Part shown: piece by piece, positions 34,582 to 56,415 of the stretch
Layout: every line of letters starts with the position of its first letter
Numbering within the stretch: position 1 is the first letter of the stretch
DNA from: Vulcanimicrobiota bacterium
Lineage (GTDB): Bacteria > Vulcanimicrobiota > Xenobia > Xenobiales > JADMJV01
DNA length: 64,000 nucleotides
Assembly: GCA_050250895.1 (NCBI GenBank)
Contig: JBFWNU010000001.1
Location: 2,086,210-2,150,209 of the forward strand
Direction of reading: 5' to 3'
Program-made: the position numbers and the translations under genes
The notes under the pieces: model-generated
Databases searched by the model: none
The model's input: only the letters and a program-made list of their open reading frames with translations
Told to the model about the DNA's origin: nothing

Positions 34582-34945
34582 CGACTTTCACGGCCACAGT
34601 GTTCGGGGGCAGACCGCTAGCATCGGCTCGCACCACCAGAGTGTAGCGTTCGTTGTTTCTTACTCCCTGCGGATACGGGCCAGGGGGAAATCCCGTGGTG
34701 GGGTCTGGTGCGGTGGGCACGGCCAGACGTCCATCATAAGTGCCGACGGTGACCTGATCATACCCGTTGGCCCGCACCCGTTCCAAGAATTCACGGGCCA
34801 CGTCGGTAGCTCCGGTGACCTGGTTGCTTTGCCGCAGCCAGCGCATTCCCTGGGTGAACACCAACAGAAGCGAAAGCAGGGCTACCGAGAGCAGTCCCAT
34901 GGCGATCAGGGTCTCGAGCACGGTCAAGCCGCGCCGCTTTTTCAC
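34526..34945 (-). CDS. PilV/GspI-like pseudopilin
   Basis: Canonical prepilin motif RRGLTVLETLIAMGLLSVALL. 139 aa. Confidence 0.75.
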   Translation of the reverse strand: MKKRRGLTVLETLIAMGLLSVALLSLLLVFTQGMRWLRQSNQVTGATDVAREFLERVRANGYDQVTVGTYDGRLAVPTAPDPTTGFPPGPYPQGVRNNERYTLVVRADASGLPPNTVAVKVDVYWNDQAKISLETYLRP

Positions 34946-36740: not shown

Positions 36741-37337
36741 ATGATAACAGTTTATACTGAGAATTACAACCCGTCAGAGGAACCTTTGCGCAATTCGTAT
36801 TTTGGGCTTCGCCACGGCCAAAGTTTAGCCAACCTTGAGCAGCGCATTATCAGTGCGCCCGAGGTTGGCTGTCAGCAATACGGACTGAGCGAACTTGGTC
36901 ACAAGCAGGCTTCGGGCGCCGCTAACGGTCTGGACCCGAAAGCGCTATTTGTCTCATCCGATTTTCTGCGGGCGCACCAGACAGCCCTGCTGGCTGCCAC
37001 CAGTCTGGGTGCCGCCGAGCCACGCCTCGAGCCGGCCCTGCGCGAGCGATTCTTCGGTGAGTTTGAGGGCCAGACCGCCGAGAGTTATCCGCTGGTCTGG
37101 CAGCGCGACAGCCAGGGAGACCATTGCTGGCGCGGGGTCGAATCGCCGCTCGCCCTCACCCGGCGAATGGCCGGGGTGGTGGAAGGCCTCGAGCAAAGCC
37201 ACCAGGGGCGAACCATCGTGCTGGTTTCCCACGGTGACCCACTGAGGTTCTTGCAGTTGTGGTTCGAGGGGCGTCCCTTCACCGAGCACGCTCGGTTGCC
37301 CCATTTCGAGCCGGCCGAACTCCGACGGCTCGGCTAG
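36741..37337 (+). CDS. Histidine phosphatase family protein (phosphoglycerate-mutase-like)
   Basis: RHGQS catalytic motif near the N-terminus and an SHG motif near the C-terminus. Confidence 0.78.
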   Translation: MITVYTENYNPSEEPLRNSYFGLRHGQSLANLEQRIISAPEVGCQQYGLSELGHKQASGAANGLDPKALFVSSDFLRAHQTALLAATSLGAAEPRLEPALRERFFGEFEGQTAESYPLVWQRDSQGDHCWRGVESPLALTRRMAGVVEGLEQSHQGRTIVLVSHGDPLRFLQLWFEGRPFTEHARLPHFEPAELRRLG

Positions 37338-40300
37338 CGCTCCCACCACAGCTTGCCGCGGGCCCCGGGGTGGTTGCCGATCTGGTTCATCGAGTCGGCC
37401 TCATAGAGCCGTCCGTTGGCCATCACGTAGCGGACCGACTCGGTATTGTAGATGTCGGCTAACGGGTCGCGGTCGAGCACGATCAGATCGGCCAACTTGC
37501 CGGCCTTGAGCGAGCCGATATCACCATCGAGACCCAGATAGTGGGCCCCGTTGAGGGTGGCTGCTCGCAAGGCTTCCATCGGACTCATCCCGCCCTGGAC
37601 GAACATCCACATCTCCCAGTGGGCGCCCAGCCCTTCGCGTTGGCCGTGGGCTCCCAGGTTGACCTTCACCCCTGCATGCTCGAGATCGGCGGCCACCCGG
37701 GCGGCCCGAAAGTGGTTGTAGTCCTCATCCGGGGCTTTGGTGCGCCGCCGCGAACGCGGGTCGAGGATGCGCTGGGGCACAAAGCGGGCCAGACGGGTAT
37801 TCTCCCAGACGTTGGTCTTGTCATACCAGTAATTCTCGCCCCAGATGCCGCCATAGGCCACCACCAGCGTGGGGGTGTAGCCCACCTGGGTGCCCGACCA
37901 GAGGGTGAGCACATCCTGGTAGACTTTGGGCACCGGAATCGAGTGTTCGACGCCGGTATGGCCGTCGACCACCATGGTCATATTGTGCTCGAACAACGAG
38001 CCGCCCTCGGGCACCACCATCAAACCCAGCTCGCGAGCCGCTGCCAGCACCTGTTGGCGCTGTTCGCGGCGGGGCTGGTTGTAGCTCTTGACGCTAAAGG
38101 CCCCCCAGGCCTTCAGACGGCCTAAGTGGGCTCTGGCGTCCTCCAGACTGTCGATGGCGGCAAAGTAGCTGGGCGCCTTGGCCCCGTAGACGATGGTGCC
38201 GGTGGAAAATACCCGCGGAGCGGTGATGCGTCCGGCTTTCCCCAGCTCTGAGGTCGAGAAGACCTCGGCCGTATCGTTGGAAGGGTCGTGGATGGTGGTC
38301 ACCCCGAAAGCCAGCGTGGCCAGGTCATACCAGTTCTCTTGGGGAGTCAGCTGCGAGCTGCCCTGAGAGCCGTGCCAGTGGACATCCACAAAACCGGGCA
38401 TGACGACTTTGCCCCGAGCGTCGACCTGGTAGGAGCCGGCCGGTATCTGCACCTGGTCGGCCGGGCCCACCGCCTGGATGCGGTTGCCGCTGACCACCAC
38501 CGTGCCGGGGTCATAAATGGTGTCGCCTTCCATGGTGATGACCTTGCCGCCCACCACGGCTACCTGGCCTTCGGGTTTGTCGGTGGGCCAGGGAAAAGAC
38601 AGCGAGACCTCTTCGGTCGCACCCCCCGCGGTGGCCCGCGAAGAGAGCTTGGGGCCGAGCGCCCAGTGGATGCGCGAACCGCCGTTGGTCCAGTGGACGT
38701 AGTCGGCCGAGTGCTCGGTCAGAGCGTCTACCGGCAGAGCTTTGGTGGTCTCGCTGATCTCAGCCACCAGTCCCGAGTCGACGTAGGGGACCTGGAACCA
38801 GCGAAAATCCTGACAGAAGGCCAGATACTTGCCGTCGGGCGACAGCCGCAGATCGGTGACGAGCGTGCCGCCATCGAAGTGCTCGCGCTCTTGCGAGCCG
38901 TCGAGCAAGATGCTGCGCAGGGCCACCCGCTGGCCGCCCCGCACGAAGTAGACCCGCCTGGGGTCGGCCCCGAAGTGGGGATGGGCTGCCTGGGTGACCA
39001 GCTTCTCGGGCTTGCCGCCGGCGGCCGGGATCTTGAACAGGCCGCTTTCCATGGCGTAGAGCCGGCTGAGCAGGTTGTCGGCGTTGAGTTTGTCATAGAC
39101 GACCACGCGGCCGTCGGGCGAAAAGACCGGAGTGATAAATTGGCCGTGCTCGACTAACACTCGGCTGTTGCCTTCCAGGTCGCTCACCCTGACGCTGCCG
39201 GTGGCCGAGTCGCTCCAGGTAGTATAGACGAGACTTTTGCCGTCACGGCTAAAACTTGGATAAAACTCGAAATGCTCGCTCTGTTTGGTGAGCCGGCGAG
39301 GCTTGCCGCTGGGCAACTCTTGCAGCCACAGATAGCCGAGAGCCTGAAAGACGACCCGTTTGCCGTCGGGGGACACGGTCGGCCAGCGAATGGCCTTGAC
39401 CTGGAACTGGTCGGGCGCCACCTCGACGGGAAAGCGCAAAGCCTGCTGGACCTGACGGGTGGTGGTGAGGTGGAAGGGGATGTCGGTCACGGCCCCACCG
39501 GTCAGGGCCAGACGGTGAAACCCGCCGCCGGCATAGAAGACGAGCTGGCGCGAATCGGGCGTCCAGGCCATCGACGGATAGACGCCGTGGATAGCCCACG
39601 TCTCTTGCATGTCGCGCTCGAGGCCGTCGTAGAGAGGGGTCTCGCGCCCACTCTCGAGGTCTTTGACGAACAGCACCGTCTTTTCGCGCACCCGCCGTAC
39701 GAAAGCGATCCACTTGCCATCGGGCGAGGGAGTCGGCCGCACCGACCCCCCCGGGCCGGTGATGAAACGTTCGTTGAGGCCGGTGGCGCGTTCCAGGCGC
39801 CGAATGACATAGATCTCGCCGGTCGAGTCCTTGTTGTACTCGAAGGTCTGACCTTCGGTCATATCCTGGCTGTAGTAGACGTACTTGCCGTCAGGCGAAA
39901 AGGCCGGTTCGCCGACGTCCTTCTGGTCGTTGGGACGAGAAGTCATTCTCAGGCCCTCGCCGCCGCTTACATGATAAAGCCAGATTTCGCCGGCTCCCAG
40001 CGAGCGCTCGCCGGTGAAATGCTTGCGGGCCGCGATGAACTTTCCGCTGGGATCCCAGGCGGGGCTGTTGAGCAGGCGAAAGTTTTCCTCAGTCACCTGA
40101 CGAGCACCGCTGCCATCGAGGTTCATCACCCAGATGTTGTCACCGCCGCCGCGATCCGAGGTATAGGCGATTTGGCGGCCGTCGGGTGAAAAGCGCGGCT
40201 GCATGTCCCAGGCCAACCCGCTGGTGAGGGCCCGGGCTTCGCCGCCCCCGAACGGCATGGCGTAGATATCGCCCAGCAGGTCAAAGACAATCGTCTTGCC

Positions 40301-40447
40301 GTCAGGAGACACATCCAGGTTCAACCAGGTGCCTTCGTCGAGATCGAACTCGATGGTGGAAAGAGGGCCGCCGGGCTTTTCCACGTCCCAATCGGCCGCG
40401 GCCGGCAAGACCAGCAGCAGCAATAACAAGAATAGTCGCTTTACCAT
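37334..40447 (-). CDS. Secreted multi-PD40 beta-propeller protein fused to a C-terminal metal-dependent amidohydrolase domain (1037 aa)
   Basis: Signal peptide. Many SPDG blade motifs across roughly 600 aa. C-terminal amidohydrolase signature (GFVDVHWHG, later His/Asp ligands). Confidence 0.85.
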   Translation of the reverse strand: MVKRLFLLLLLLVLPAAADWDVEKPGGPLSTIEFDLDEGTWLNLDVSPDGKTIVFDLLGDIYAMPFGGGEARALTSGLAWDMQPRFSPDGRQIAYTSDRGGGDNIWVMNLDGSGARQVTEENFRLLNSPAWDPSGKFIAARKHFTGERSLGAGEIWLYHVSGGEGLRMTSRPNDQKDVGEPAFSPDGKYVYYSQDMTEGQTFEYNKDSTGEIYVIRRLERATGLNERFITGPGGSVRPTPSPDGKWIAFVRRVREKTVLFVKDLESGRETPLYDGLERDMQETWAIHGVYPSMAWTPDSRQLVFYAGGGFHRLALTGGAVTDIPFHLTTTRQVQQALRFPVEVAPDQFQVKAIRWPTVSPDGKRVVFQALGYLWLQELPSGKPRRLTKQSEHFEFYPSFSRDGKSLVYTTWSDSATGSVRVSDLEGNSRVLVEHGQFITPVFSPDGRVVVYDKLNADNLLSRLYAMESGLFKIPAAGGKPEKLVTQAAHPHFGADPRRVYFVRGGQRVALRSILLDGSQEREHFDGGTLVTDLRLSPDGKYLAFCQDFRWFQVPYVDSGLVAEISETTKALPVDALTEHSADYVHWTNGGSRIHWALGPKLSSRATAGGATEEVSLSFPWPTDKPEGQVAVVGGKVITMEGDTIYDPGTVVVSGNRIQAVGPADQVQIPAGSYQVDARGKVVMPGFVDVHWHGSQGSSQLTPQENWYDLATLAFGVTTIHDPSNDTAEVFSTSELGKAGRITAPRVFSTGTIVYGAKAPSYFAAIDSLEDARAHLGRLKAWGAFSVKSYNQPRREQRQQVLAAARELGLMVVPEGGSLFEHNMTMVVDGHTGVEHSIPVPKVYQDVLTLWSGTQVGYTPTLVVAYGGIWGENYWYDKTNVWENTRLARFVPQRILDPRSRRRTKAPDEDYNHFRAARVAADLEHAGVKVNLGAHGQREGLGAHWEMWMFVQGGMSPMEALRAATLNGAHYLGLDGDIGSLKAGKLADLIVLDRDPLADIYNTESVRYVMANGRLYEADSMNQIGNHPGARGKLWWER

Positions 40448-41796
40448 AGACTCCTCACGATGACGGAGCGCTGCATGCGCGCCGCTGGGGCCGCCAGGGC
40501 CGCCTTTTCAAGACTGGGCCAGCTGCCGGCCGGCAACTGGTGAGCCAGAATCACCCGGTCCTTCTGGCGGGTGAGTTGCCATTTGGAGCCGATAGCCTGG
40601 CGCGCGGCTTGCTCGAACTCGACAGCATCCCTCGCGGTATCCCAGACGGTCACCCAGAGAAAGCACGATTGCTCACCTCGGGTCCAGACCCGGTAGCGGT
40701 CGCCCCCCCAGCCGGTGGCGGCCACCTCGCGCTCGACCCCATGTTGCTCGAGAAAGGCTCGCACCAAAAACTCGCCGCCGGTGTCGTCGTGGCCGAGGAC
40801 CTTCCAGCCCTGGGGAGCCGGTAGGCCGGCCAGCTTCACCTGGATGGGAAAGTCGCGCTCTTCAAGATACTTTTCGGGGTGGATGACCTGCTCGCTCGAA
40901 AGCGGCAGATCCTGATACATCAGACTGACCGCCGGCCACCCCCCCATGGCCCGCACCCGGCCCACCAGACCCATGCCGATGTAGTATGGAAAGATCAGCG
41001 CTCGCTTGAAGTAGAGTGGGGCCCGGGTGTAGTTGCCCATGCCCGGTAAGGGAATCGGAAATTTGGTGACCAGATCGGCCATGCGCGACATATCCAGATT
41101 GGCGCCATCTACCGAGGCGTCGTCGCCCAGTTGGAAGTCGAACATGGCCAGGGTGGCCTCGCCCTCGAGCAGACTGCTGACAGCCAGGCTCATATCGGTG
41201 TTGTGGGCTTTGACGGCCTCGAGTTGGATTTTCTTGAGGTCGAAGTGCTGGTCGCCCAGGGCGTGATCGAGTTCGTGATAGATGAGCACCTCGTTGGGGT
41301 CGGCGCCGCCGGAAAGGAGCTTGGTGGCCAGGCTCTGCTTCACGTCCACCATGAAGAATTGACGGCTATCGGGGTCGTAGGCGCCGGCGATCTGCTCGGT
41401 GTAGAGTTCTTGCATGAAAGGCCGGATTTCGAAGTCCGGCTTGACGAGCCCCAGGTGCTTGAGCATGGCTTCGTCGAGGGTGCTCTGCTCGACCGGATAA
41501 TAGATCTCGAGCTGCTTGGCGAAGAACACCCCGAGTTGCTCGCGGTCCTTGACATGCCAGGGCACGAAATGCTCGAAGGCTAGACCCCGATTGGCCTCGA
41601 GTTTGACCATCAGGTGCTCGAGAGGGGCCCGCGAGGCGTCATGAGCGACCGTTTCGAGTGCCGTCATGCCCAGCGGTACCAACTCGGCCCCGGGCACTCC
41701 CTTCCATTCCTCCCACAGCCGATCACGGGTCTCCGACCAGTCGTCGGCCCTGGCCCAACCGGTCAGAAGTAACAGTAAGAGAACAATGGCGCGCAT
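40441..41796 (-). CDS. Secreted HExxH metallopeptidase-like protein (peptidase MA-like)
   Basis: Signal peptide MRAIVLLLLLLTGWARA and motif IYHELDHAL. It overlaps the downstream propeller-amidohydrolase gene by 7 nt. Confidence 0.62.
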   Translation of the reverse strand: MRAIVLLLLLLTGWARADDWSETRDRLWEEWKGVPGAELVPLGMTALETVAHDASRAPLEHLMVKLEANRGLAFEHFVPWHVKDREQLGVFFAKQLEIYYPVEQSTLDEAMLKHLGLVKPDFEIRPFMQELYTEQIAGAYDPDSRQFFMVDVKQSLATKLLSGGADPNEVLIYHELDHALGDQHFDLKKIQLEAVKAHNTDMSLAVSSLLEGEATLAMFDFQLGDDASVDGANLDMSRMADLVTKFPIPLPGMGNYTRAPLYFKRALIFPYYIGMGLVGRVRAMGGWPAVSLMYQDLPLSSEQVIHPEKYLEERDFPIQVKLAGLPAPQGWKVLGHDDTGGEFLVRAFLEQHGVEREVAATGWGGDRYRVWTRGEQSCFLWVTVWDTARDAVEFEQAARQAIGSKWQLTRQKDRVILAHQLPAGSWPSLEKAALAAPAARMQRSVIVRSLW

Positions 41797-41837: not shown

Positions 41838-42272
41838 ATGGATCGTTTTATGCAAGCAGCTATCGACGAAGCCCGCGCTGGTTTGGCCCAGGGCGGCATT
41901 CCCATCGGCTCGGTGCTGGTCAAAGATGGCCAGATCGTGGCTCGCGGCCACAACAAGCGCGTCCAAGAACTCGACCCGGTGCTGCATGCCGAGATCGACT
42001 GCCTGCGCAACGGCGGGCGCCTGGGCAGCTATCGCGGCACCGTGCTCTACTCGACTCTGATGCCTTGTTACCTGTGTGCCGGAGCGGTGGTCCAGTTCAA
42101 GATTCCCAGGGTCATTGCCGGCGAGTCGAAGACCTTCGCCGGAGCGCGCTCGTTTCTCGAATCCCACGGAGTCGAGGTGATCGACCTCGAGAATGCCGAG
42201 TGCATCGGGTTGATGGAAGATTTCATCGCCGCCCACCCCGAGCTGTGGGCCGAGGACATCGGGGAGGCCTAG
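41838..42272 (+). CDS. Yeast-type (Fcy1-like) cytosine deaminase, CMP/dCMP deaminase zinc-binding family
   Basis: Motifs HAEIDCLRN and PCYLCAGA. The C-terminal tail (FIAAHPELWAEDIGEA) closely parallels the Fcy1 C-terminus. The ATG is at 41838 inside the longer ORF. Confidence 0.82.
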   Translation: MDRFMQAAIDEARAGLAQGGIPIGSVLVKDGQIVARGHNKRVQELDPVLHAEIDCLRNGGRLGSYRGTVLYSTLMPCYLCAGAVVQFKIPRVIAGESKTFAGARSFLESHGVEVIDLENAECIGLMEDFIAAHPELWAEDIGEA

Positions 42273-42745
42273 ACCTCGGAAAAGAACCAGTAGACGGCCT
42301 TGAGCGTGTCGCGCACGTCGGGCTCGAACAGCGCGTCATCGACTCTGGCCAGGCCTACCTCGAACTGGTTGAGGATGCGCTGGTCGCCGACCTTGATGCC
42401 CTGACGAAAGCGGTCCACCACCGTTTCGAGTTCGCCTTCGTCAAACCAGATGCCCTGGCATTGTTGGCACAGGTCGAGCACGACCTGGGCGGCGATCACC
42501 TCGGCCAGGCCGCACCAACAGCGCGGACAGGCGCGAGGCACCGGGCGAAAGCCGAAGGTCACGGGCTGGCGGTCGCGCCAGCGCTCGAGAAATTCGTCAA
42601 CCAGGGTGGGAATGCCCAGAAACGAAGCCAGCTCACCGCTGTCAAACCACAGACCGCTACAGGCCCGGCACAGGTCCAGCTCTAACTCGCCCGCTCGCAC
42701 GACCTGCAGCAGCTGGTCGGTGCAAGCCGGACACTTCAAGCTCAC
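42269..42745 (-). CDS. Tandem zinc-ribbon (zf-TFIIB-like) protein
   Basis: Two copies of CPxC...L.LC..C.G.WFD.GEL. Confidence 0.62.
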   Translation of the reverse strand: MSLKCPACTDQLLQVVRAGELELDLCRACSGLWFDSGELASFLGIPTLVDEFLERWRDRQPVTFGFRPVPRACPRCWCGLAEVIAAQVVLDLCQQCQGIWFDEGELETVVDRFRQGIKVGDQRILNQFEVGLARVDDALFEPDVRDTLKAVYWFFSEV

Positions 42746-42816: not shown

Positions 42817-43074
42817 CTAGCCTCCCTGAGCGCTACACTGCATGCCCATCTGCTGGCAAATTCGCTGCCACACGCCCTCGCCCGCATCCAGGGCCGCTTC
42901 CAGCCCGGGACTCAGGTTGTTGCGCCCGCCCCGGGGCCGGCTCTGGGCCTCGTTGGTCAGGGTGGTACGGTCGCCCGAGGGGGCGCCCGTCGGGGTGGCC
43001 GCGGGGCGATTGGGCTGCTGGCGCTGGGCCGGCTGGTTCTGAACGCGATTGATCTGCATCAGTCCTCCACACAC
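42817..43074 (-). CDS. Small Gln/Pro-rich hypothetical protein
   Basis: ORF only. An inverted-repeat operator-like site lies upstream. Confidence 0.28.
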   Translation of the reverse strand: MCGGLMQINRVQNQPAQRQQPNRPAATPTGAPSGDRTTLTNEAQSRPRGGRNNLSPGLEAALDAGEGVWQRICQQMGMQCSAQGG

Positions 43075-43224: not shown

Positions 43225-45153
43225 TCAGTGGCCCCAGGTCGGCCACGACTCACCGATAGAGGGCGTGTTGGTCAGGTTGACTTTGTTGTTGCCGTCAGAG
43301 TCCATGCGCCAGATGTCGCCGCCCTCCATATAGACCACCTGAGAACCGTCGGGAGAGACGGCGGGCGAAAGAGAGGGGGCGGCCGTGTTGGTCAGATTGG
43401 TCCAGTTCGAGCCGGCGTTGGTGACCGGATCGATGTCGGCCCGCCAGATGTCCCAGTTGCCGCCAGCTCGGCAACTGTAGTAGAGCTGCAGCCCATCGGG
43501 GGACCACCACGAATAGCTCTCGAAGTTGTTGCCGCCCGGCGTGCCCACCAGCGCCTGGTTGCTAAAGGTGCGGGTGGTGGGGTCGAAGTCGGCGATGATG
43601 ATGCGTAGACCCGAAAAGCCCAGGGTGCCCACCATGGAGAGGCGGGTGCCATCGGGCGAGACGGCCGCGTTGATGCCGCCGTCGCCGGTGCCCGAGAGAG
43701 CGTTGTGGTTGCTGACCGTCCCCAGGCCGTCGACCACCACCAGATCGAGGTTGTTAGCGTAGAGCAGGTTACCGTCGGGGTCGAGGCTGCCGACCTCATA
43801 GGCGGTGAAGTTGGCTCGCCGGGTGACGGTAAGGGCATCGATGTCGAGGCTGTGCGGTTTCATGCCGCCCCCCGAGCGATTCGATAGAAAGAGGACCTGG
43901 TCGACCCCGAACGAGGCTCGCGGCATGCGGTCGGGACCGGGATAATTGCTCAGATTGACCGGCTCTGACCCATCGGGGTTCATCTGATAGATTTCGTCGT
44001 TGCCGTCGCGGTCGGTCTGGAAGTAGATGTGGCTGTTCTCGGTGGTGCGAACCACTCCGCCGGCCCCGATGGTGGCCGTGGCCGAGGCTCCGGCCGGGTC
44101 GGTGATGGTGCACACCAGCGGATAGTCGAGGTTGGGGCCGGCCCCCGGAGGTGGCTCGAAGGTGGTGCGCAAGACCCAGACATTGGCGGTGGGATCCCAC
44201 TCCATGGGGGTGTTGGGCCCGGTAGAGAAGGCTCCACCGCTGGTGCAGGTCCAGGTTAAAAAGACCGGATCGCCATCGGTGTCCTGGGCCCTCACCTCGA
44301 GGGTCAGTTTGTGTCCCAGTCCCAGCAAAACGTCGACGCCGGCCGGCAGCGAAGCCGGATTGCTGGCCGGCTTGGGCTGGGGGGCTCCGGCGAAGGTGGG
44401 GGCGTTGTTGGCCCCGGCGGCCAGGCCCGGCGGGGCGGGAGCGGCTACCAGGGCACCTCCCTCGGGAATGGCGCCGTTGACCAGATCGGGGGTCAGTTTG
44501 AGCGACCCCAGGGGAGTGACGGTGATGGTGTAGGCAGTTCGGGCCTGGCTCAATTGGAAGAAGCTGTTCGAGAAGCCGGTGCCCGTGCCGGCCAGGTTGG
44601 TGGCCGTCTGGTCGAGGGCGGTCAGGGTGGCCAGGTGGTAGGCCCCATCGAACCCCGGCAGGTCGTTGGTCAGCACCGAGCCGGAAGGGGTGAAGACGAA
44701 GACATAGTCCTGGTCGAGTCCGGCCGGGCCTGCGGCCAGCCAGGTGGACAGATCGAAGGTATCGGCGCTACTGCCGGTCGGCAGCCGGTCGACTCGCTCG
44801 CTGCCGGTCCAGGCTCCCACAAAGATTAGGCTATCAGGGTACTCGTTGGCGAAGTTGACCACCCTCACCAAGCGGGGGGCCGAGCGCCCCTCCAGCAGAT
44901 AAAGCGACTGCGACTGGCCTCCCCCCCGGGCCCCACTGGGAAAGGCCAGGGCGACCGGAGCACGGGTCGCCAGCGCCCGGCTGCGGGCGGCCACCAATTC
45001 TCCCATCACGGCCTGGGCCAGAGCTCGCGAGCGTCCCTTTTCGCGACCCTTCTGGGCCGAATAGAGCGAGAGCCCGGCCAGGACTGCCAGCAAGGCCATG
45101 GCCACTATCAGTTCGGGCAGGCTAAAGGCCCGTCTCATTGCTCTTCGCGCCAT
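43225..45153 (-). CDS. Prepilin-type N-terminal domain fused to a C-terminal PD40/TolB-like beta-propeller (642 aa)
   Basis: N-terminus RRAFSLPELIVAMALLAVLAGL (pilin-like, Ala at -1). The C-terminal third carries SPDG/WSPDG blade motifs (VSPDGTRLSM, WWSPDGLQLYY, VSPDGSQVVY). Confidence 0.75.
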   Translation of the reverse strand: MARRAMRRAFSLPELIVAMALLAVLAGLSLYSAQKGREKGRSRALAQAVMGELVAARSRALATRAPVALAFPSGARGGGQSQSLYLLEGRSAPRLVRVVNFANEYPDSLIFVGAWTGSERVDRLPTGSSADTFDLSTWLAAGPAGLDQDYVFVFTPSGSVLTNDLPGFDGAYHLATLTALDQTATNLAGTGTGFSNSFFQLSQARTAYTITVTPLGSLKLTPDLVNGAIPEGGALVAAPAPPGLAAGANNAPTFAGAPQPKPASNPASLPAGVDVLLGLGHKLTLEVRAQDTDGDPVFLTWTCTSGGAFSTGPNTPMEWDPTANVWVLRTTFEPPPGAGPNLDYPLVCTITDPAGASATATIGAGGVVRTTENSHIYFQTDRDGNDEIYQMNPDGSEPVNLSNYPGPDRMPRASFGVDQVLFLSNRSGGGMKPHSLDIDALTVTRRANFTAYEVGSLDPDGNLLYANNLDLVVVDGLGTVSNHNALSGTGDGGINAAVSPDGTRLSMVGTLGFSGLRIIIADFDPTTRTFSNQALVGTPGGNNFESYSWWSPDGLQLYYSCRAGGNWDIWRADIDPVTNAGSNWTNLTNTAAPSLSPAVSPDGSQVVYMEGGDIWRMDSDGNNKVNLTNTPSIGESWPTWGH

Positions 45154-45623
45154 CGGATCACCTTGAAGTAGTTGGGGTTTGGGCTGGCCGGCGTAGGCCG
45201 CAAGTTGGGCGTGAAGTCGATCTCGGCGCTGACGGTGCGGGTCGCCAGCGGACTCTCGTCGGGGCCCAGCCGGCCTACGGAACGAAGTTCGAGCAGATAA
45301 TACGGAGCCCGATTACGAGTGGTGTCGACCGATACGGTGTACGAGCCCAGCGGTGAGCCGTCGACCTCGGTGAACAGCTCGTGGTACTCAAAGACCGGCT
45401 CTTCGGCCGACAGGCGGGGGGGAAACAAGGGATCTTTTTGTAGCTTGCCCAGCGCGTCTTCCAGGCCGGCCTCGGCGATGGAAAGCGCCGAAGCTCCGGC
45501 GGCCGCCTGGCGCACCCCGCGATATTGCGAGGCTCGCTGAGCCAGATAGCCGACTCCCATCACCAGCAATAGAGCCAGGATCAGCAAGGCGCTTACGATG
45601 ACGGAGCCGGTTTTGCGCGTCAT
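45135..45623 (-). CDS. PilX-like minor pilin (PilX N-terminal domain)
   Basis: N-terminus GSVIVSALLILALLLVMGVGYL...SIAEAGL. Confidence 0.68.
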   Translation of the reverse strand: MTRKTGSVIVSALLILALLLVMGVGYLAQRASQYRGVRQAAAGASALSIAEAGLEDALGKLQKDPLFPPRLSAEEPVFEYHELFTEVDGSPLGSYTVSVDTTRNRAPYYLLELRSVGRLGPDESPLATRTVSAEIDFTPNLRPTPASPNPNYFKVIRWREEQ

Positions 45624-46174
45624 AGCCTCACCCTCGGATAGACCTGGCTGCGCAACTGGCGAATACCGCCGGCTGCCTCAAAACTCAGCACCAGTTCCAG
45701 ATTGCCGGTGGTCAGATACTGGCAGGCCAGGCCTTGCACCTGGTCGGCTACCAGAGCGGTGCTGCTGGTGCCGTCGGGGTAGGTGAGCCGCCGGGTCAGG
45801 CCCCCCGAGACCACGCTATAGCTGACGGTCACCGCGTAGTCGTTGAGCGGGGCTACTCCCAGCACGTCGAAGGGGTCCCAGGGAGTGGTTCCGGTGAAGC
45901 GGCTGGTGTTGGCCGGGTCGATGAGCTGGAAGGTCAGGCTCGAGGCGCTGCCCACGGCTGGCGGAGAGCTGACCGAGAAGGCGCCCTCGACCTCGCTGCG
46001 CATCCGGTCCATCCCCACCATGATCGATTGCAGCTGGGCGTCCTTGAGTCCCAGCTGGTTGACCGCCCGCGAATAGCTGGTGATGACCGTGGCCGCGATG
46101 GCAAAGACGATGCCGACCAGCAGCATGGTCACCATTGCCTCCAGCAGCGAGAAGCCTCTAGGGCGCCAGCTCAA
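45620..46174 (-). CDS. Pseudopilin (PilW/GspJ-like), canonical prepilin motif
   Basis: Motif RPRGFSLLEAMVTMLLVGIVFAIA. Confidence 0.75.
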   Translation of the reverse strand: MSWRPRGFSLLEAMVTMLLVGIVFAIAATVITSYSRAVNQLGLKDAQLQSIMVGMDRMRSEVEGAFSVSSPPAVGSASSLTFQLIDPANTSRFTGTTPWDPFDVLGVAPLNDYAVTVSYSVVSGGLTRRLTYPDGTSSTALVADQVQGLACQYLTTGNLELVLSFEAAGGIRQLRSQVYPRVRL

Positions 46175-46970
46175 CGAGCACCTCCTGGCGGATGTCTATC
46201 CCCTGATAGCGCGTGCGGGCCACCAGGGCGCAATTGCCTCCGGCGTAACGCCGGCTGCCGTCGGGGTTATCGATGAAGTTGGACAGCGAGGCTTGAGAGC
46301 CGTCGCGACGGGCGTTGGTGACCGTGCCCATGCCGGGTCGGGCCTCGGCCGACCAGACGAACAAAGCGTCGGGGATGAGATTGCCAGCACCGTCGCGTAG
46401 CTCGGCCTGGTAGCGCACCGACAGGTCGTGGCCCAGCGGTGGCGAGACGGCCGTGACCGGAGTGACCACCACGGAGAGGCCGACCAGGTCGCGGACGGGT
46501 GAACCCACCAGGCTGGTCAGGCTGACCCGTTCGGTGGCCGTGCCCCGGCCCCAGCGGACCTGCACGCGCACCTTGCGATAGGTGGCCGCCAGCCGCCGCT
46601 GGTCCCCGGCGTGTTGGGCCTCGAGCAGGCTGCAGGGTGAGTCGAGCGGGGGGCTCTGGAGGCTCACGTCGATAGCATATTCGGGATAGTCGGGGGGCAC
46701 GAGGGTGGTCCCGTCGTAGGGCGCCCAGGCTCCTTCGAAGTTGAAAACGGGCGCCGCGGGTTGACGAGCCCAGCCCCGGATCTCGGCCAGGGTCCGCTGG
46801 GCCAGCATGGTGGCGATGGCGGCTTGTTCGGCCCGGGTAGAATAGGTGAGCGAACTGTGAAAGAGCTGGGTGGTCACGAACAGACCGGCCACCAGCACGA
46901 ATAGGCCGATGGTGGTCTCGATGAGACTGCCTCCTCTGCGCTTACCCACCGAGTTTGTCCAAAAAGCCAT
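46158..46970 (-). CDS. Pseudopilin-like protein (GspH/PilV-like)
   Basis: Internal start MAFWTNSVGKRRGGSLIETTIGLFVLVAGLFV (G-S-L-I-E prepilin motif). The 5' part of the long ORF 46158..47408 is an out-of-frame read of the gspF 3' end. Confidence 0.58.
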   Translation of the reverse strand: MAFWTNSVGKRRGGSLIETTIGLFVLVAGLFVTTQLFHSSLTYSTRAEQAAIATMLAQRTLAEIRGWARQPAAPVFNFEGAWAPYDGTTLVPPDYPEYAIDVSLQSPPLDSPCSLLEAQHAGDQRRLAATYRKVRVQVRWGRGTATERVSLTSLVGSPVRDLVGLSVVVTPVTAVSPPLGHDLSVRYQAELRDGAGNLIPDALFVWSAEARPGMGTVTNARRDGSQASLSNFIDNPDGSRRYAGGNCALVARTRYQGIDIRQEVLVELAP

Positions 46971-48114
46971 AGAGCGGAAGGAAGACCGACAGCAGCACCA
47001 GGCCGATGATGGTGGCCACCACCGCCAGCAGCACGGGTTCGAGGGCGGCACTGAGCGCCTCGATGCGATAGTTGAGTTCTTCATCGAAGAAGCTGGCTGC
47101 CCGGAACAGCATTTGCGGCAGCGATGACGACTCTTCGCCCACGGCCACATAGTAGGAAAGGGTGGCCGGATAGATGTCCTCGCGGGCGGACAGATATTCC
47201 GACAACCGCTCGCCCTGGTGGATGGTGTCCACCAGCAGCGGAGCGTCGATGACCACCACCGGATTGCCGCTGGCCAGCGCCCCCAGCTTGAGGCAGCGGT
47301 CGAGGCGCACGCCGGCGCTGACCAGGGTTGCGGTGGCGGCCGAAAAACGAGCGGTCGAACTGGCCACCAGCATCGGCCCGAGGACGGGGATCTGGCAACA
47401 GGCGGCAAAAACCTGAGCGGCCATCCGGGGGTCGTTGCGCAAGCGCTGGCGCACCATCAATACCAGGGCCAGCACCCCCGTCAGCCCCAGAATCCAGTTG
47501 CCGGGATTCTGGCAGCCTTGCGACAGGCTCATCATGAGCCGGGTCAGCCAGGGAAGAGGGATGTTCATGGAGTGGAAAATGTCGACAAAACCCGGCAGCA
47601 CGAACGAAAACAGCCCCAGGGTCATGGCTACGGCCGTGCCCAGCACGAACAGGGGATAGGTCAAGGCTCCTCGGATGCGCTTGCGCAGGCGTTCATCTCG
47701 TTCTTCCCACTCCGAGACGCGCTCCAGCGAGGCCACCAGGCGGCCCGTTTCTTCGCCCACCCGCACCATGGCCACGTACACTCTGGAAAAGACGCGGGGA
47801 TAAGCCGAGAGCAAGCGCGAGAGGGTGTAGCCCTGGGTGAGGCGGGTGCCGATCTCGGTGAGGACGGCTTCGAAGTTGGGCGACTCGGGCTGGTGCGAGA
47901 GAATGTCCAGGGCCTGGCTGAGGGGCACTCCGGAGGACACCAGCAGGGCCAGCTGGCGAGAGAAAATGCCCACTGCCTCGGGGGCACAGCGAACGCTGGT
48001 CCGCCAATCACGTTGGGCGGGCGCGACTCCCTCAGTCACCATCGGGTAAACTTCTGGGGGGCGCCGAAGGGCCCCTGGGAGAATAAAAATCACCCACCCG
48101 GCGCTCGAAACCAA
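46942..48114 (-). CDS. Type II secretion system F family platform protein (second PilC/GspF paralog)
   Basis: T2SSF repeats (LALLVSSGVPLSQALDIL..., LVSAGVRLDRCLKL...) and transmembrane segments. An alternative start lies at 48042. Confidence 0.85.
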   Translation of the reverse strand: MVSSAGWVIFILPGALRRPPEVYPMVTEGVAPAQRDWRTSVRCAPEAVGIFSRQLALLVSSGVPLSQALDILSHQPESPNFEAVLTEIGTRLTQGYTLSRLLSAYPRVFSRVYVAMVRVGEETGRLVASLERVSEWEERDERLRKRIRGALTYPLFVLGTAVAMTLGLFSFVLPGFVDIFHSMNIPLPWLTRLMMSLSQGCQNPGNWILGLTGVLALVLMVRQRLRNDPRMAAQVFAACCQIPVLGPMLVASSTARFSAATATLVSAGVRLDRCLKLGALASGNPVVVIDAPLLVDTIHQGERLSEYLSAREDIYPATLSYYVAVGEESSSLPQMLFRAASFFDEELNYRIEALSAALEPVLLAVVATIIGLVLLSVFLPLYGFLDKLGG

Positions 48115-48755
48115 TCGCGGGGGAGCAAGCGGACCGCGGCCGGGTCCTGGTCGAGGCCGGCCCGAACCCAGTCGCGCAGGGGGCCGCGCACGTAGCGGTC
48201 GAGGTCCTGGCCCGGGCAGGTGGTCTGGCCCGGGGCGGCCTGGCGATGTCCTACGATGGTGGCCGGGTCGATGGCGTGTTGGCGGCAGAGCTCGATCAGC
48301 AACTCGACCAGGCTTTGCAGGGCGGACAGGCTCAGAATCTGTTGCTCATAATCGCCAAAGACCTGCACGTTGATCACCCCGTCAAGCGGGTAACTGGTAT
48401 TGCTCTCGGGGCGATAACGCCAGTCGCGGCCGGCGAAAATCCGCCCATCGGGCGTGATGAGATAGTGGTAGGGCAGATCGGGCCAGTTCTTGACGCGCTG
48501 TCCCCAGCTCTGCAGGTTGCGCAATTTTTGATAGGGCTCGTCCTCGGGGTGCCAGACGACCCCGGCGTGGTGGACCACGATCCGGCGCGGGGTCTGCCGC
48601 AACGAGTCATCCAGGGCTTGCGGCTTCGAGCCCCAATCCGAGGCGGGTATGATATTGGGGGCCAACAGCGCCACCAGGCAGAGGGCGAGAAGTCTACTCA
48701 CGGTAAAAGAAGAAGCCGCCAGTGCTTTGTTGAGGATGTATGCAGGAGGGTCCAC
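48090..48755 (-). CDS. N-acetylmuramoyl-L-alanine amidase (Amidase_2 / PGRP-like), secreted
   Basis: Amidase_2 motifs IVVHHAG, DLPYHYLI and GHRQ...TTCPG. First gene of the gspF-pseudopilin operon. Confidence 0.75.
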   Translation of the reverse strand: MDPPAYILNKALAASSFTVSRLLALCLVALLAPNIIPASDWGSKPQALDDSLRQTPRRIVVHHAGVVWHPEDEPYQKLRNLQSWGQRVKNWPDLPYHYLITPDGRIFAGRDWRYRPESNTSYPLDGVINVQVFGDYEQQILSLSALQSLVELLIELCRQHAIDPATIVGHRQAAPGQTTCPGQDLDRYVRGPLRDWVRAGLDQDPAAVRLLPRDWFRAPGG

Positions 48756-52797: not shown

Positions 52798-53787
52798 ATG
52801 AAAGAACGTCTCGAGAAGTTTGGCCAGAACATGCAAAAGCTGCGCCTGGAGCTGGCCAAGAGGATGGTCGGTCAGCAGACCCTGATCGAGGATGTGTTGC
52901 TGGCCCTGGTGGCCGGCGGGCACGTGCTGCTCGAGGGCGTGCCCGGTCTGGGCAAGACCTTGTTGGTCAAGACGCTGGGGCAGGTCTTCGACCTGCCCTT
53001 CTCGCGCATCCAGTTCACCCCTGATCTGATGCCGGCCGACATTTGCGGGGTCAACCTGATCGAAGAGCACGAAGGAACTCGCAAGTTCGTTTTCAGTCAA
53101 GGGCCGATCTTCGCCAGCCTGGTGCTGGCTGACGAGATCAACCGGGCTACTCCCAAGACCCAGTCAGCCCTGCTCGAGGCAATGCAAGAGCGTCAGGTCA
53201 CCGTGGCCGGGGCGGTGCGGCCCCTGCCGAAGCCGTTTTTCGTGCTGGCCACTCAGAACCCCATCGAGATGGAAGGCACTTATCCCCTGCCCGAGGCTCA
53301 GGTAGATCGCTTCTTTTTCAAGCTCTGGGTGGAGTTTCCCGGGGCTAGCGACCTGGCTGCCATTCTTGACCGCACCACCGGGGCCGAGGAAGAAGAGGTT
53401 CAGGCGGTATGTAGCGGTGAAGAGCTGCTCGAGATGCAACTGCTGGCCCGCCAGGTGGTGGCCGCCGAGGCCTTGACCCACTTCGCCGCCAGGTTGGTGC
53501 TGGCCACCCATCCCCAACGCCCCGAATCGCCCGAGGACGTGCGTCGTTTCGTGCGCTTTGGCTCGAGTCCGCGAGGAGCCCAGACCCTTTTGCTGGCGGC
53601 TAAGGCCCGGGCCCTCTCGCAGGGTCGCTTCAACGTGGCCTTCGAAGACATCGCAGCGGTGGCCCGGCCGACCTTGCGCCATCGTATCATTCTCAGCTTT
53701 GAAGGCGAGGCGGAGGGGATCAAGACCGATACCTTGATCGACCGCCTGCTCGAGGAGGTCCCCCGTGAACCGGCTGCTGTGGGTTAG
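52798..53787 (+). CDS. MoxR-family AAA+ ATPase
   Basis: Walker A GVPGLGKT, Walker B LADEINRA, sensor/arginine regions. About 330 aa, typical MoxR size. Confidence 0.9.
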   Translation: MKERLEKFGQNMQKLRLELAKRMVGQQTLIEDVLLALVAGGHVLLEGVPGLGKTLLVKTLGQVFDLPFSRIQFTPDLMPADICGVNLIEEHEGTRKFVFSQGPIFASLVLADEINRATPKTQSALLEAMQERQVTVAGAVRPLPKPFFVLATQNPIEMEGTYPLPEAQVDRFFFKLWVEFPGASDLAAILDRTTGAEEEEVQAVCSGEELLEMQLLARQVVAAEALTHFAARLVLATHPQRPESPEDVRRFVRFGSSPRGAQTLLLAAKARALSQGRFNVAFEDIAAVARPTLRHRIILSFEGEAEGIKTDTLIDRLLEEVPREPAAVG

Positions 53788-55492
53788 TCTCTGGGTCCTA
53801 TGGGTGACCCTACCGGGGTTTGCTCGCGAGGTCGAGTTCTATCCGACCTTCGGCGAGTTCACCCGCACGGGTTGCGAGTTGCCGGTCTCGGTGGTGCTCG
53901 CCAATCCTCGCTCGGCCGCCTACACCTATCACCTCAGGCTTAGCCCGGCCGACGAACGGGCCCGAGCGCGAGCCGATGTGCAAGTTGAAGCCCAATCCAC
54001 CCGGCGGATCGATATGGTCGCGCCGGCCGGCTACATCTCGCGCCTCGAGTTGGACTGGGGAGTCAAGAACCCGCCCGCGGTGGACATGCGCCAGGTCAGC
54101 GAGCGCGACCTGTTGATGTTGATCCTCGCTCCCAAGGGGACCGAGTTTGGCTATCTGGGGGGGTTTGAATCGCTCAAGGACGACGGCGAGAACTACAAGC
54201 GCCAGGTCTTCATGAATCGGCCCCAGGCGGTCACCGCTTTGCCCGAGCGGTGGTCGTCCTATGACATGCACAACCTGATCATCCTCCACGACGTGCCCGC
54301 TCTCAACCTCGAGCAACGGGCTCAGCAGGCCATGCTCGACTGGACCGTGGCCGGCGGCAGCCTGGTGCTGGTCAGCAACGGCTCGCCCGGCGAGTATCGC
54401 GGCAGCCTGTTCGAGGCGGTGGCGCCGATGGAGGGCAGGACCTCGGTCGAAGCCGGTGGCCTGCCTTTGCTCTCGGGGCAGCTTCGGGGCGAGGTCCTGC
54501 AGGAACTCGACGGTCACCCCCTGCTGACGCGCCGCGCGCTCGGTCTGGGGCAGATTTTTTTGGTCACGGCCCCTCTGGTCGAGGGATCGACGTTGGGTCT
54601 GGACAAGACCGAGAAGTTGTGGCTCGAGATCGAGAAGAGGTTCCGCAACCCGGCCCAACTCGACAGTTCGTTGCTGGACAATCCTCCCGAGATCCCCCTG
54701 CCCAGGGCCAGCAGTCTGGCCTGGTATCTGCTCGCCTATGCCTTTCTGGTGGGACCGCTCAACCTGGTTTGGCTGCGCCGCCGGGACCAGACGATGCGGG
54801 CGTTCGTCACCATTCCCCTGATCGCCGTCTTGTTCGCCGGTGGGGCCTTCGTCTTCAACTGGTCTCAGCGCGACAATCGGATGGTGGCGCGCGAGATGGG
54901 CATTCTGTGGGGTGACACGGGCAGCACCCGGGCGCTGGTTCGCTCTCGCTTGCTTTTGTTTTCTCCGGTGAGTCGTAGCTATCGCATCGAGTTCGGACCT
55001 CAGGTCGGAGTGGGGTCGTTGCTGGACCTGGGAAGCGGCATCGATGACTTTCCGGACGTTTTGCTCAACGACAAGCTAGGACTGGTGCTTGACGACTATC
55101 AGATGGCCATGTGGTCGGTTCGCCGGCTGGATCTGTCTGAGGTGGTGGGTCTGCCGGGGCGATTCCAGGTCAAACTCGAGGGGAACAGGCTCGAGGCTTT
55201 CAACCCCCTCGAGGCCCCTCTGTACCATACCGTGGTGCGGGCACCGGCGGGCTACAGCCAGGCCTTCACTCTCGAGCCCGGTCAACACAGCTACGACCTC
55301 AAGTGGGAGGCGAGCTTTCCCGAGAGCCGCGACGCCGACCAGCAAAAGCTGGTGCGCTCGGCCCTGCCCGCTCTCGAGGGCGACCGGGTGGCCATTCTGG
55401 GGTGGCTCGACGGTATGTTGACCCCGGTCGAACTGGCCGGTCTCGAGAAGCACACGGCCAGCCGTTTGCTGGTCATCACGGAGGACAAATGA
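53765..55492 (+). CDS. Hypothetical membrane-associated protein (signal peptide plus central transmembrane pair), auxiliary component between the MoxR and ABC transporter genes
   Basis: GTG start overlapping the moxR 3' end. N-terminal hydrophobic region and a central transmembrane region (WYLLAYAFLVGPLNLVW...IPLIAVLFAGGAFVF). No family recognised; possibly DUF4350/GldG-like. Confidence 0.6.
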   Translation: MNRLLWVSLWVLWVTLPGFAREVEFYPTFGEFTRTGCELPVSVVLANPRSAAYTYHLRLSPADERARARADVQVEAQSTRRIDMVAPAGYISRLELDWGVKNPPAVDMRQVSERDLLMLILAPKGTEFGYLGGFESLKDDGENYKRQVFMNRPQAVTALPERWSSYDMHNLIILHDVPALNLEQRAQQAMLDWTVAGGSLVLVSNGSPGEYRGSLFEAVAPMEGRTSVEAGGLPLLSGQLRGEVLQELDGHPLLTRRALGLGQIFLVTAPLVEGSTLGLDKTEKLWLEIEKRFRNPAQLDSSLLDNPPEIPLPRASSLAWYLLAYAFLVGPLNLVWLRRRDQTMRAFVTIPLIAVLFAGGAFVFNWSQRDNRMVAREMGILWGDTGSTRALVRSRLLLFSPVSRSYRIEFGPQVGVGSLLDLGSGIDDFPDVLLNDKLGLVLDDYQMAMWSVRRLDLSEVVGLPGRFQVKLEGNRLEAFNPLEAPLYHTVVRAPAGYSQAFTLEPGQHSYDLKWEASFPESRDADQQKLVRSALPALEGDRVAILGWLDGMLTPVELAGLEKHTASRLLVITEDK

Positions 55493-56415
55493 TCATCTGC
55501 AAAGGTCTGTCCAAGACCTATGACGATCATCAGGCCCTCGAGAACCTCGACCTGTTTGTCGAGGCTGGCGATGCCTACGGTTTCATCGGGCCCAACGGGG
55601 CCGGCAAGACCACGACGATCCGCATTCTGGCCACCTTGCTCGAACCCACCGAGGGCACGGCCGAGGTGGGGGGGTACTCGGTCGATACCCACCCCGACGA
55701 CGTGCGCCGGCTGCTTGGCTACATGCCCGACAAATTCGGCGTTTATGACGGCATGCGAGTGTGGGAGTATCTCGATTTTTACGCGGCCGCCTATCGTATA
55801 CCGCGTCCGGATCGGGCCAAGCTGTTGGCCGACGTGCTCGAGTTGACCGACCTGGGGCACAAGCGCGAGGCCTTTGTCGAGTCGCTCTCGGCCGGCATGC
55901 GTCAGCGTCTGTGCCTTTCCAAGACGCTGTTGCACGACCCTCAGGTCTTGATTTTAGACGAGCCCGCCAGCGGGCTTGACCCGCGGGCCCGGATCGAGCT
56001 AAAAGAGCTGTTGCGCGAGCTGACCCGGATGGGCAAGACCCTGTTCGTGTCGTCTCACATCTTGCCCGAGCTATCCGACTTTTGCAACAAGGTCGGTATC
56101 CTCGAATCGGGGCAGTTGGTGGCCTCGGGCGAGGTCGAGGCCATTCTGGGTCAACTGGGTGGCGCCCGGGCGCTGAGCATCAAGGTGCTGCGCGAGCTGG
56201 AGAAGGCGGCCCAGACCATCGAGAGCGTGGCCCAGACCGAAAATGTTCGCATCGAGAAGAACCAGATCTTGCTCGACTTCCATGGCGACCTCGAGGCCAT
56301 GGCCGACCTCTCGGCCCTGCTGGTCGAGGCCAACCACGGACTGATCGAGTTTCACGAAGAGAAGACCAACCTGGAGAAGATCTTCCTGCAGGTGACCCGG
56401 GGCCAGGTGGGATGA
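55489..56415 (+). CDS. ABC transporter ATP-binding protein (ABC-2 / CcmA / GldA-like)
   Basis: Walker A GPNGAGKTT, signature LSAGMRQR, Walker B ILDEP. ATGA overlap with the upstream gene. Confidence 0.88.
   Translation: MIICKGLSKTYDDHQALENLDLFVEAGDAYGFIGPNGAGKTTTIRILATLLEPTEGTAEVGGYSVDTHPDDVRRLLGYMPDKFGVYDGMRVWEYLDFYAAAYRIPRPDRAKLLADVLELTDLGHKREAFVESLSAGMRQRLCLSKTLLHDPQVLILDEPASGLDPRARIELKELLRELTRMGKTLFVSSHILPELSDFCNKVGILESGQLVASGEVEAILGQLGGARALSIKVLRELEKAAQTIESVAQTENVRIEKNQILLDFHGDLEAMADLSALLVEANHGLIEFHEEKTNLEKIFLQVTRGQVG

Follow-up and report, generated by a model that had tools for sequence, protein, structure and literature searches.

What does a pilin carrying a beta-propeller do within a cluster of minor-pilin genes? 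The question is raised by the minus-strand locus 43225-48755 of a 64,000-nucleotide (nt) stretch of DNA from a Vulcanimicrobiota bacterium (contig JBFWNU010000001.1, assembly GCA_050250895.1), referred to as a whole as the window. A reading made from the sequence alone had described here an amidase-headed operon of eight overlapping genes, dedicated to one unusual, cargo-like pseudopilin of 642 amino acids (aa), in which a prepilin N-terminus is fused to a PD40 propeller. The results reported below make it probable that the relevant unit is smaller and of a different nature: five overlapping genes (43225-48042, minus strand), which would provide a type IV filament with a self-contained "tip kit" made up of a short platform protein and a set of four subunits similar to HIJK (FimT/U-PilV-PilW-PilX), one of which is the fusion.

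A modular pilin and its three pilin-like partners

The fusion begins with MARRAMRRA^FSLPELIVAMALLAVLAGLSL, where the caret marks the cleavage site, here RRA^FSLPE with Ala at -1. The segment is matched above threshold by both Pfam N_methyl (23 bits, cut-off 21.2) and TIGR02532 (23.8 bits, cut-off 16.3), in agreement with the pilin-like cleavage/methylation helix originally read from the sequence. Among 125 aligned relatives, position -1 is occupied by Gly in 90 and by Ala in 29 (119 Gly or Ala), position +1 by Phe in 92, and position +5 by Glu in 121 out of 122; the resulting leader consensus is R-R-[G/A]^F-[S/T]-L-x-E. Because leader and Glu5 are kept across the relatives, the N-terminus is a conserved class III signal and not an ordinary anchor. 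A profile search of PDB with the pilin part produced matches restricted to pilin N-termini.

The structure was modeled by AlphaFold2 (AF2) with 125 homologs, giving a pLDDT of 91.8 and a pTM of 0.80; when only PD40 homologs were supplied, residues 57-280 stayed unmodeled. In the model a helix of 52 residues (12-63) is followed by strands spanning residues 67-222, at pLDDT >90, i.e. by the arrangement of a pilin. The head is likely of the GspH/FimT type, as judged by profile comparison. The N-terminal family alignment (A4), compared to GspH/FimT proteins by using hhalign, gave a probability of 98.7% (E 2e-16); the match is limited to residues 6-81, corresponding to the helix and the first strand, and for this reason the assignment falls short of proven. 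The nearest matches to the head profile outside the family are PF12019 pilins named FimT or GspH, TIGR01708 matches the fusion at E 0.053, and the Pfam GspH domain was found in 3 of the 67 relatives scanned (E<=1e-3).

A Pro/Ala-rich linker of about 50 residues connects the head to an immunoglobulin (Ig)-like domain, modeled as a beta-sandwich at residues 275-361. Pfam Big_9 matches this region at E 0.017 in the fusion, and at values down to 5.6e-8 in 14 of the 67 relatives. The C-terminal region matches Pfam PD40 (37.3 bits, cut-off 20.9) and the TolB model (E 1.5e-13), and is folded by AF2 into a six-bladed propeller, whose closest solved relatives are TolB proteins. The propeller expected from the sequence is therefore present and C-terminal, although it covers about 43% of the protein, not a third, and is preceded by the head and the Ig-like domain. 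PD40 was found in 59 of the 67 relatives and N_methyl in 31. The propeller is also the most divergent part of the protein, with a mean pairwise identity of 0.23 vs 0.33-0.35 for helix, head and Ig domain. With N_methyl, Big_9-like and PD40 regions, the fusion is a modular pilin, a class defined by IPR012902 plus at least one extra, non-pilus domain.

Two candidate assignments of the fusion were tried and rejected. TolB orthology (TIGR02800) scored 50.5 bits against a cut-off of 343.15, covering only profile positions 194-317, and the N-terminal alpha/beta domain of TolB is missing. Homology to the PilY1/PilC tip adhesins found no support, since no PF05567 (IPR008707) match was detected in the fusion or in any scanned open reading frame (ORF) of the window.

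The three genes between platform and fusion encode pilin-like proteins, here named I-, J- and K-like (Table 1), corresponding to the two prepilin-motif proteins and the PilX-like protein noted at the outset. The J-like protein matches Pfam N_methyl (E 2.5e-6) and TIGR02532, and its orthologs in related loci were both aligned (A8) and detected by hidden Markov models (HMMs). The N-terminus of the I-like protein matches NCBIfam PilV at E 7e-4, below cut-off. In the K-like protein, with sub-threshold NCBIfam matches to GspK (E 2e-3) and ComGG (E 0.04), the hydrophobic N-terminus is followed by the motif A-x-AEAGLEDA, AEAGLEDA being typical of PilX/GspK-type caps. Glu is found at +5 in none of the seven aligned K-like proteins (A9: the 162-aa subunit of the window and six orthologs), while it is present in the other three pilin-like subunits of the module. 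Past the N-terminal helix no significant match to PilV/W/X or GspI/J/K was obtained; the I, J and K assignments are based on protein size and motifs, on the order of the genes and on their co-inheritance.

The same genes accompany the fusion in related loci. In 11 of 12 gene-called contexts (the window and loci L002-L012) it is found with genes encoding about 250-273, 165-188 and 147-174 aa alongside, and these small genes align with the I-, J- and K-like genes of the window (A7-A9). HMMs of the three small proteins detected them adjacent to the fusion in all 14 further loci with visible flanks; I-like orthologs, specifically, adjoin it in eight aligned loci (A7) and in these 14. Combining both sets, the fusion and the I-, J- and K-like genes are found together in 25 of 26 informative loci, i.e. 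with visible flank, and the arrangement is not due to chance. Most loci have the order fusion-I-J-K; the window, L007/L023, L011 and L028 have I-J-K-fusion, and L030 and L032 have J-fusion-I-K.

These data sustain the initial description of a minor-pilin set of the type II secretion system (T2SS) or type IV pilus (T4P) type with its own platform paralog, on the basis of motifs, T2SSF domain and linkage across loci. They do not support its dedication to a single cargo: the fusion is inherited together with three other pilin-like subunits, a pattern expected of a priming or tip complex and not of a machine with its cargo. The core HIJK priming/tip complex is capped by a subunit without Glu5 (PMC10191384; PMC13533445), and four co-inherited pilin-like subunits including a Glu5-less cap appear to follow the same pattern.

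In eight orthologs the C-terminal 90 aa or so of the I-like pilin form a conserved Ig-like segment, with consensus W-S-V-E-P...R-D-G-R...Y-x-G-Q. Because of this extra segment, modularity in the set may not be limited to the fusion.

Table 1. Position of the genes and protein regions of the module, and of other type IV filament genes in the window
Feature	Positions	Strand	Basis
Amidase_2 gene, secreted, PGRP-type N-acetylmuramoyl-L-alanine amidase	48090-48755	-	Pfam PF01510
Short PilC/GspF-type platform, 366 aa	46942-48042	-	Pfam T2SSF; start at the ATG of the public gene call
I-like (PilV/GspI-position) minor pilin, 263 aa	46158-46949	-	Motif RRG^GSLIE, read directly
J-like (PilW/GspJ-position) minor pilin, 184 aa	45620-46174	-	Motif RG^FSLLE; Pfam N_methyl, TIGR02532
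K-like (PilX/GspK-position) cap subunit, 162 aa	45135-45623	-	Hydrophobic pilin-like N-terminus without Glu5
H-like modular pilin (fusion), 642 aa	43225-45153	-	Pfam and NCBIfam, AF2 model
Fusion residues 1-63, leader and alpha-1 helix (12-63)	44965-45153	-	Motif, model
Fusion residues 64-225, beta-sheet pilin head, closest to GspH/FimT family	44479-44964	-	hhalign, profile neighbors
Fusion residues 275-362, Ig-like (Big_9/cadherin-like), conserved DxDGD motif	44068-44331	-	Pfam, model
Fusion residues 367-641, six-bladed PD40/TolB-like beta-propeller	43231-44055	-	Pfam PD40, model
PilM, then directly PilB/GspE-type ATPase (MshEN and T2SSE; ATPase 14752-16404)	13757-16404	+	Pfam
Canonical full-length PilC/GspF platform, 427 aa	20473-21756	-	Pfam T2SSF E 1.3e-62; 30% identity to operon platform
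Second minor-pilin set: 575-aa PilX_N-like protein, 139-aa and 220-aa prepilins	33919-36669	-	Pfam

Size, distribution and multiplicity of the family

The size of the family was evaluated by an exhaustive phmmer search with fusion residues 1-362 against 1.84 billion representatives, clustered at 50% identity. At E<=1e-3 the search revealed 471 clusters, of which 169 reach E<=1e-30; among the 150 matches listed, nearly all are 600-750 aa long and align end to end. The family becomes visible only by such a search. Word-index searches with the full fusion returned two close homologs along with unrelated PD40 proteins, those with the N-terminal alignment (A4) a single family member, and those with the head alone (A6), swamped by other matches, none; a contig search of genomes with the single fusion protein detected no relative. 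A degenerate DNA pattern, built on two family motifs and used to scan species-representative genomes, identified 23 stretches, 22 of which are true members.

The closest relative with a named source, 86% identical, comes from a metagenome-assembled genome (MAG) of "Candidatus Eremiobacteraeota", a phylum now named Vulcanimicrobiota at NCBI. Sixteen of the 22 verified loci are labeled Vulcanimicrobiota, Eremiobacteraeota, Xenobia or "EREM"; the others are labeled "uncultured Burkholderiales" (4), "Selenomonadaceae" (1) and "bacterium" (1). The loci with "Burkholderiales" or "Selenomonadaceae" labels (L020, L029, L030, L031 and L032) contain full family members, three of them accompanied by I-, J- and K-like genes; either mislabeling of the MAGs or horizontal transfer out of Eremiobacterota may explain their presence.

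Several copies are found in the same genome. At least four family genes are located on separate contigs of MAG GCA_039809865.1 (AS-MICRO-3CA.307), and at least five further MAGs contain two each, so that at least six have two or more. The prepilin::PD40 architecture, taken to be unusual when first noticed, is thus neither confined to a few clusters nor to a single copy per MAG. The occurrence of two to four paralogous modules in several MAGs suggests interchangeable tips. In one locus (L018:1733-5996) two family genes are arranged in tandem, one strong (E 7e-166) and one divergent (E 1e-34).

The proposed tip kit and its alternatives

Six genes are located within 43225-48755, according to the ORF listing and to the public gene calls for a nearly identical contig (L001); the eight originally counted are reached only by including two genes outside this range. 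Overlaps of 8, 17, 4 and 19 nt are found at the four junctions among the five genes from platform to fusion. Past the fusion, a gap of 165 nt precedes an 80-aa ORF (42817-43059), and a further gap of 71 nt a Zn-ribbon gene (42269-42745), both on the minus strand; the strand switches beyond the latter, where a dCMP deaminase gene is located. Neither gene has counterparts beside the module in the other gene-called contexts, and scans for promoters and terminators, together with folding of the 3' spacer, gave nothing exceeding shuffled controls. "Eight overlapping genes" is therefore an overstatement, since the tight unit is made of five; overlap by a few nucleotides holds for these, not for the last two genes, nor for the amidase, which lies upstream, its 3' end separated by 47 nt from the ATG of the platform.

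The first gene of the unit encodes, as anticipated, a second PilC/GspF platform paralog, the other being the canonical PilC of the window. It contains two T2SSF repeats (Pfam T2SSF E 7.6e-49, 165.3 bits) and lacks the N-terminal cytoplasmic domain which the 427-aa PilC has; its alignments to the NCBIfam models GspF (256.7 bits, cut-off 424) and PilC (237 bits, cut-off 700) begin at model positions 57-67. As all these scores fall below the equivalog cut-offs, they do not discriminate between the two families. The protein is 35-40% identical to the module-linked T2SSF proteins of L002, L005 and L007, vs 30% to the PilC of the window. More generally, module-linked platforms are 323-366 aa long, lack the N-terminal domain, and share 35-40% identity among themselves vs 27-30% with canonical PilC. 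In three related loci a separate T2SSF_N gene, also encoding a transmembrane segment, is found beside the module (L002:7943-8668, L005:5710-6327, L006:6231-7004); these genes may derive from fission of a PilC/GspF gene, judging from their domain content. A search for a split T2SSF_N gene in the window found none.

The operon does not encode a complete T2SS or type IVa pilus (T4aP) machine, as secretin, ATPase, major pilin, alignment proteins and prepilin peptidase are all missing from it. The lack of ATPase, secretin and major pilin, pointed out from the start, is thus correct for the operon but not, as regards the ATPase, for the window, where one is encoded next to PilM (PilM_2 E 4.5e-17; T2SSE E 1.2e-125). 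PilM, the PilB-type ATPase and the second PilC are located 22-30 kb from the operon. PilM and the ATPase are candidates for a machinery which the operon would share.

A scheme for the action of the tip kit may be built on the computed gene content, pilin signals, fold, family size and linkage, to which it would add filament incorporation, position in the fiber, ligand binding and the machine used. The prepilins would enter the inner membrane, where a prepilin peptidase, encoded at another locus, would cut them after Gly or Ala. The Glu5-less K-like subunit would cap an I-J-K trimer, under which the 642-aa H-like subunit would dock through its alpha-1 helix and GspH/FimT-like head. The complex would then seed the polymerization of major pilins on the platform, with a PilB-type ATPase, for instance that of the window, powering extension. 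Linker, Ig-like spacer and propeller extend from the pilin head, and would thus be exposed at the tip of the fiber or immediately under it. There the propeller would most likely serve as a ligand-binding head, either adhesin or device for substrate capture, with a PilY1-like role without homology to PilY1, analogous to that of the vWA and lectin modules grafted onto PilB and PilC of Streptococcus sanguinis. Divergent paralogous kits within a genome could then provide interchangeable tips of different specificity.

A broader form of the same idea can be offered only tentatively, as a possibility with the balance against it: in Eremiobacterota, PilY1 would have been replaced by a FimT/GspH-type pilin with its own TolB-like propeller, and at least two to four switchable, portable kits would be served by one shared motor. 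Each kit would comprise the H-propeller, I, J, K, often a short platform and sometimes a separate N-domain gene, and switching would perhaps occur through the GAF-kinase/BTAD regulators adjacent to the module in some relatives. Such genes, a GAF-HisKA histidine kinase and a Response_reg-BTAD regulator, adjoin the module at L002:16595-20734, L007:875-5211 and L011:1556-6216, and could be regulators of it. In another relative the K-like gene is directly followed by one for a Ser/Thr protein kinase whose C-terminal part is a PD40 propeller (L012:11869-13806).

Several results weigh against the tip kit. A bulky appendage of 400 residues on the subunit in the H position may be hard to reconcile with filament packing. 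A T2SSF gene is found in 10 of 34 loci, so that linkage to a platform holds in only about a third. No Pfam GspH match was obtained in the fusion itself at E<=0.1, and the hhalign match to GspH/FimT proteins does not extend past the first strand. Comparison of the I-, J- and K-like proteins with PilV/W/X and GspI/J/K, by using PDB profiles, Pfam and NCBIfam, gave nothing significant beyond the N-terminal helix. Finally, no prepilin peptidase (Peptidase_A24), secretin or evident major pilin was detected among the scanned ORFs of the window.

Part of these data might be accommodated by a T2SS-like pseudopilus, i.e. a short periplasmic piston in which the H-like propeller recognizes and pushes a secreted substrate, or holds it at the secretin. 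The top NCBIfam score of the platform is indeed that of GspF, and the head of the fusion is nearest to the GspH/FimT family; in T2SS, which has no PilY1, HIJK contacts substrates (PMC10191384), and here too PilY1 is missing and the K-like protein is self-contained. The GspF score, however, like that of PilC, is below its equivalog cut-off, and neither the window nor the related loci examined contain GspD, GspC, GspL/M or GspG. In the window the ATPase gene adjoins that of PilM, as is the case in T4P, and the presence of multiple modules per genome suits interchangeable pilus tips better than several pistons. A pseudopilus is accordingly regarded as unlikely.

The class III signal might also be a mere cleavable anchor in the inner membrane, with the propeller acting, unpolymerized, in a Tol-Pal-like maintenance of the periplasmic envelope, together with the amidase. 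This would fit the closest solved relatives of the propeller, as TolB is a periplasmic binder of Pal and peptides, and the Amidase_2 gene on the same strand, 47 nt upstream. The amidase match is solid (Pfam E 2.1e-15, 57.6 bits, cut-off 26), but no homolog was found in any of the 33 related loci searched, so that among 34 loci it is present in this genome only. The score with NCBIfam TolB is far below cut-off, the N-terminal domain of TolB is missing, and both the nearly universal linkage to three pilin-like genes, one of them Glu5-less, and the strict conservation of Glu5 would be hard to explain. Such an anchor is quite improbable.

Since it has no homolog at any other locus, the amidase is a local neighbor and not a component of the system; it is probably co-transcribed with the pilin operon here, and in this sense its place at the head of the operon stands, while its role as a functional part does not. 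Least probable of all is an amidase-headed machine of eight genes, exporting one cargo-like pseudopilin through a wall opened for its fiber by the amidase: some trans-envelope machines are accompanied by dedicated cell-wall hydrolases, the eight genes share the minus strand and no promoter-like site separates amidase and GspF, but overlap is limited to five genes, the last two follow gaps and are not beside the module elsewhere, the amidase is unique to this genome, and the fusion is a conserved subunit rather than cargo.

Relation to known systems and other features of the window

Modular pilins containing a propeller have been recorded before. In the entries considered here, IPR011659 is PD40 and IPR022346 is GspH. 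Raynaud et al. 2021 (PMC8179133) counted 1,219 modular pilins, distributed over 264 architectures; included in their Dataset S1 are IPR012902-IPR011659 (4 proteins), IPR012902-IPR022346-IPR011659 (2), IPR012902-IPR002469-IPR011659 (1) and IPR012902-IPR011659-IPR011659 (1), for a total of 8 PD40-containing proteins. The prepilin-PD40 architecture is therefore already known as a database entry, rare and uncharacterized there; compared to the 8 proteins listed in 2020, the family found here, with 471 clusters, is far larger. The sequence-only reading would have been undone by an architecture both common and already functionally assigned: it is common, and cataloged, but a function was never given. 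What is new here is how large the family is, its constant association with three other pilin-like genes, the platform paralogs in short or split form, and the multiplicity per genome.

The PilB (vWA) and PilC (lectin) proteins of S. sanguinis (PMC8179133, PMC9934059) share with the fusion the class III pilin module, the linker and the grafted non-pilus domain, and are likewise encoded beside other minor pilins, with which they form a tip complex. Here, in contrast, the graft consists of an Ig-like domain followed by a TolB-like propeller with six blades, the carrier is of the GspH/FimT type, and the phylum is diderm. The only cultured member of the phylum is a diderm with a lipopolysaccharide outer membrane and type IV pilus motility (PMC9758169).

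The tip of T4aP in Myxococcus, Pseudomonas and Neisseria, formed by FimU(PilH)-PilV(I)-PilW(J)-PilX(K) and PilY1/PilC (PMC7541494, PMC13533445), is similar in having four minor pilins encoded together, one of them without Glu5, a large beta-propeller protein, and several paralogous sets per genome. It differs in that the propeller of the module is of the PD40/TolB type and is fused covalently to the H-type pilin, instead of being docked on the K-type one, with no PilY1/PF05567 protein. The T2SS proteins GspH-GspI-GspJ-GspK and GspF resemble the module in the platform gene beside H/I/J/K, the GspH-like head and a K cap working without PilY1; GspG, D, E, C, L and M, however, are not in the cluster, the K-like protein measures 162 aa vs about 320 for GspK, and the operon platform differs from GspF in its missing N-terminal domain and low equivalog score. 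Compared to TolB of the Tol-Pal system, the fusion lacks both the N-terminal domain and a Sec signal, and lies in a pilin context, not in tolQRA-pal.

In cyanobacteria, several minor-pilin sets prime specialized pili, and beta-solenoid "tip plugs" are formed by PilX (bioRxiv 10.64898/2026.02.12.705559). Two such specialized cyanobacterial sets, and Thermus ComZ, are comparable to the present case, where again a diderm of the Terrabacteria group has more than one core minor-pilin set. In the window, the second set (Table 1) includes a PilX-like protein of 575 aa, with the N-terminal sequence G^FILGT, no Glu5, and matches to DUF7305 and to a bactofilin-like beta-solenoid, and resembles the cyanobacterial PilX-solenoid and Thermus ComZ tip sets. 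The module with the fusion differs from the cyanobacterial sets in its bulky part: here a propeller carried by the FimT/H-type subunit, there a solenoid inserted in PilX.

If the tip kit were confirmed, it would represent a large, phylum-wide case of the modular pilin principle, based on an unstudied type of module (Ig plus TolB-like propeller), and it would indicate that the H position of the conserved priming complex can bear an effector. It would also offer a way to study how Eremiobacterota/Vulcanimicrobiota, a phylum abundant in soil and cryosphere, attach to surfaces or capture substrates. Multiple kits, with truncated or split platforms, bear on the re-tooling of one type IV machine for several jobs.

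Other features of the window were noted. The PilM-PilB pair is not accompanied by PilN/O/P genes and is followed by a gene for an AMP-binding enzyme; near it, on the plus strand, toxin-type genes encode a Fic/DOC-family protein (10616-11020) and a HepT-like ribonuclease (12939-13352). Just downstream of the pilin cluster, at 37334-41796 (minus strand), a 451-aa DUF8575 protein precedes a 1037-aa protein in which an amidohydrolase domain is combined with two tricorn/PD40 propellers; no connection of this PD40 protein with the module was apparent. On the opposite strand, the region 52798-63095 encodes a MoxR AAA ATPase, DUF58, BatA and large VWA proteins, in an arrangement similar to Bat/aerotolerance operons.

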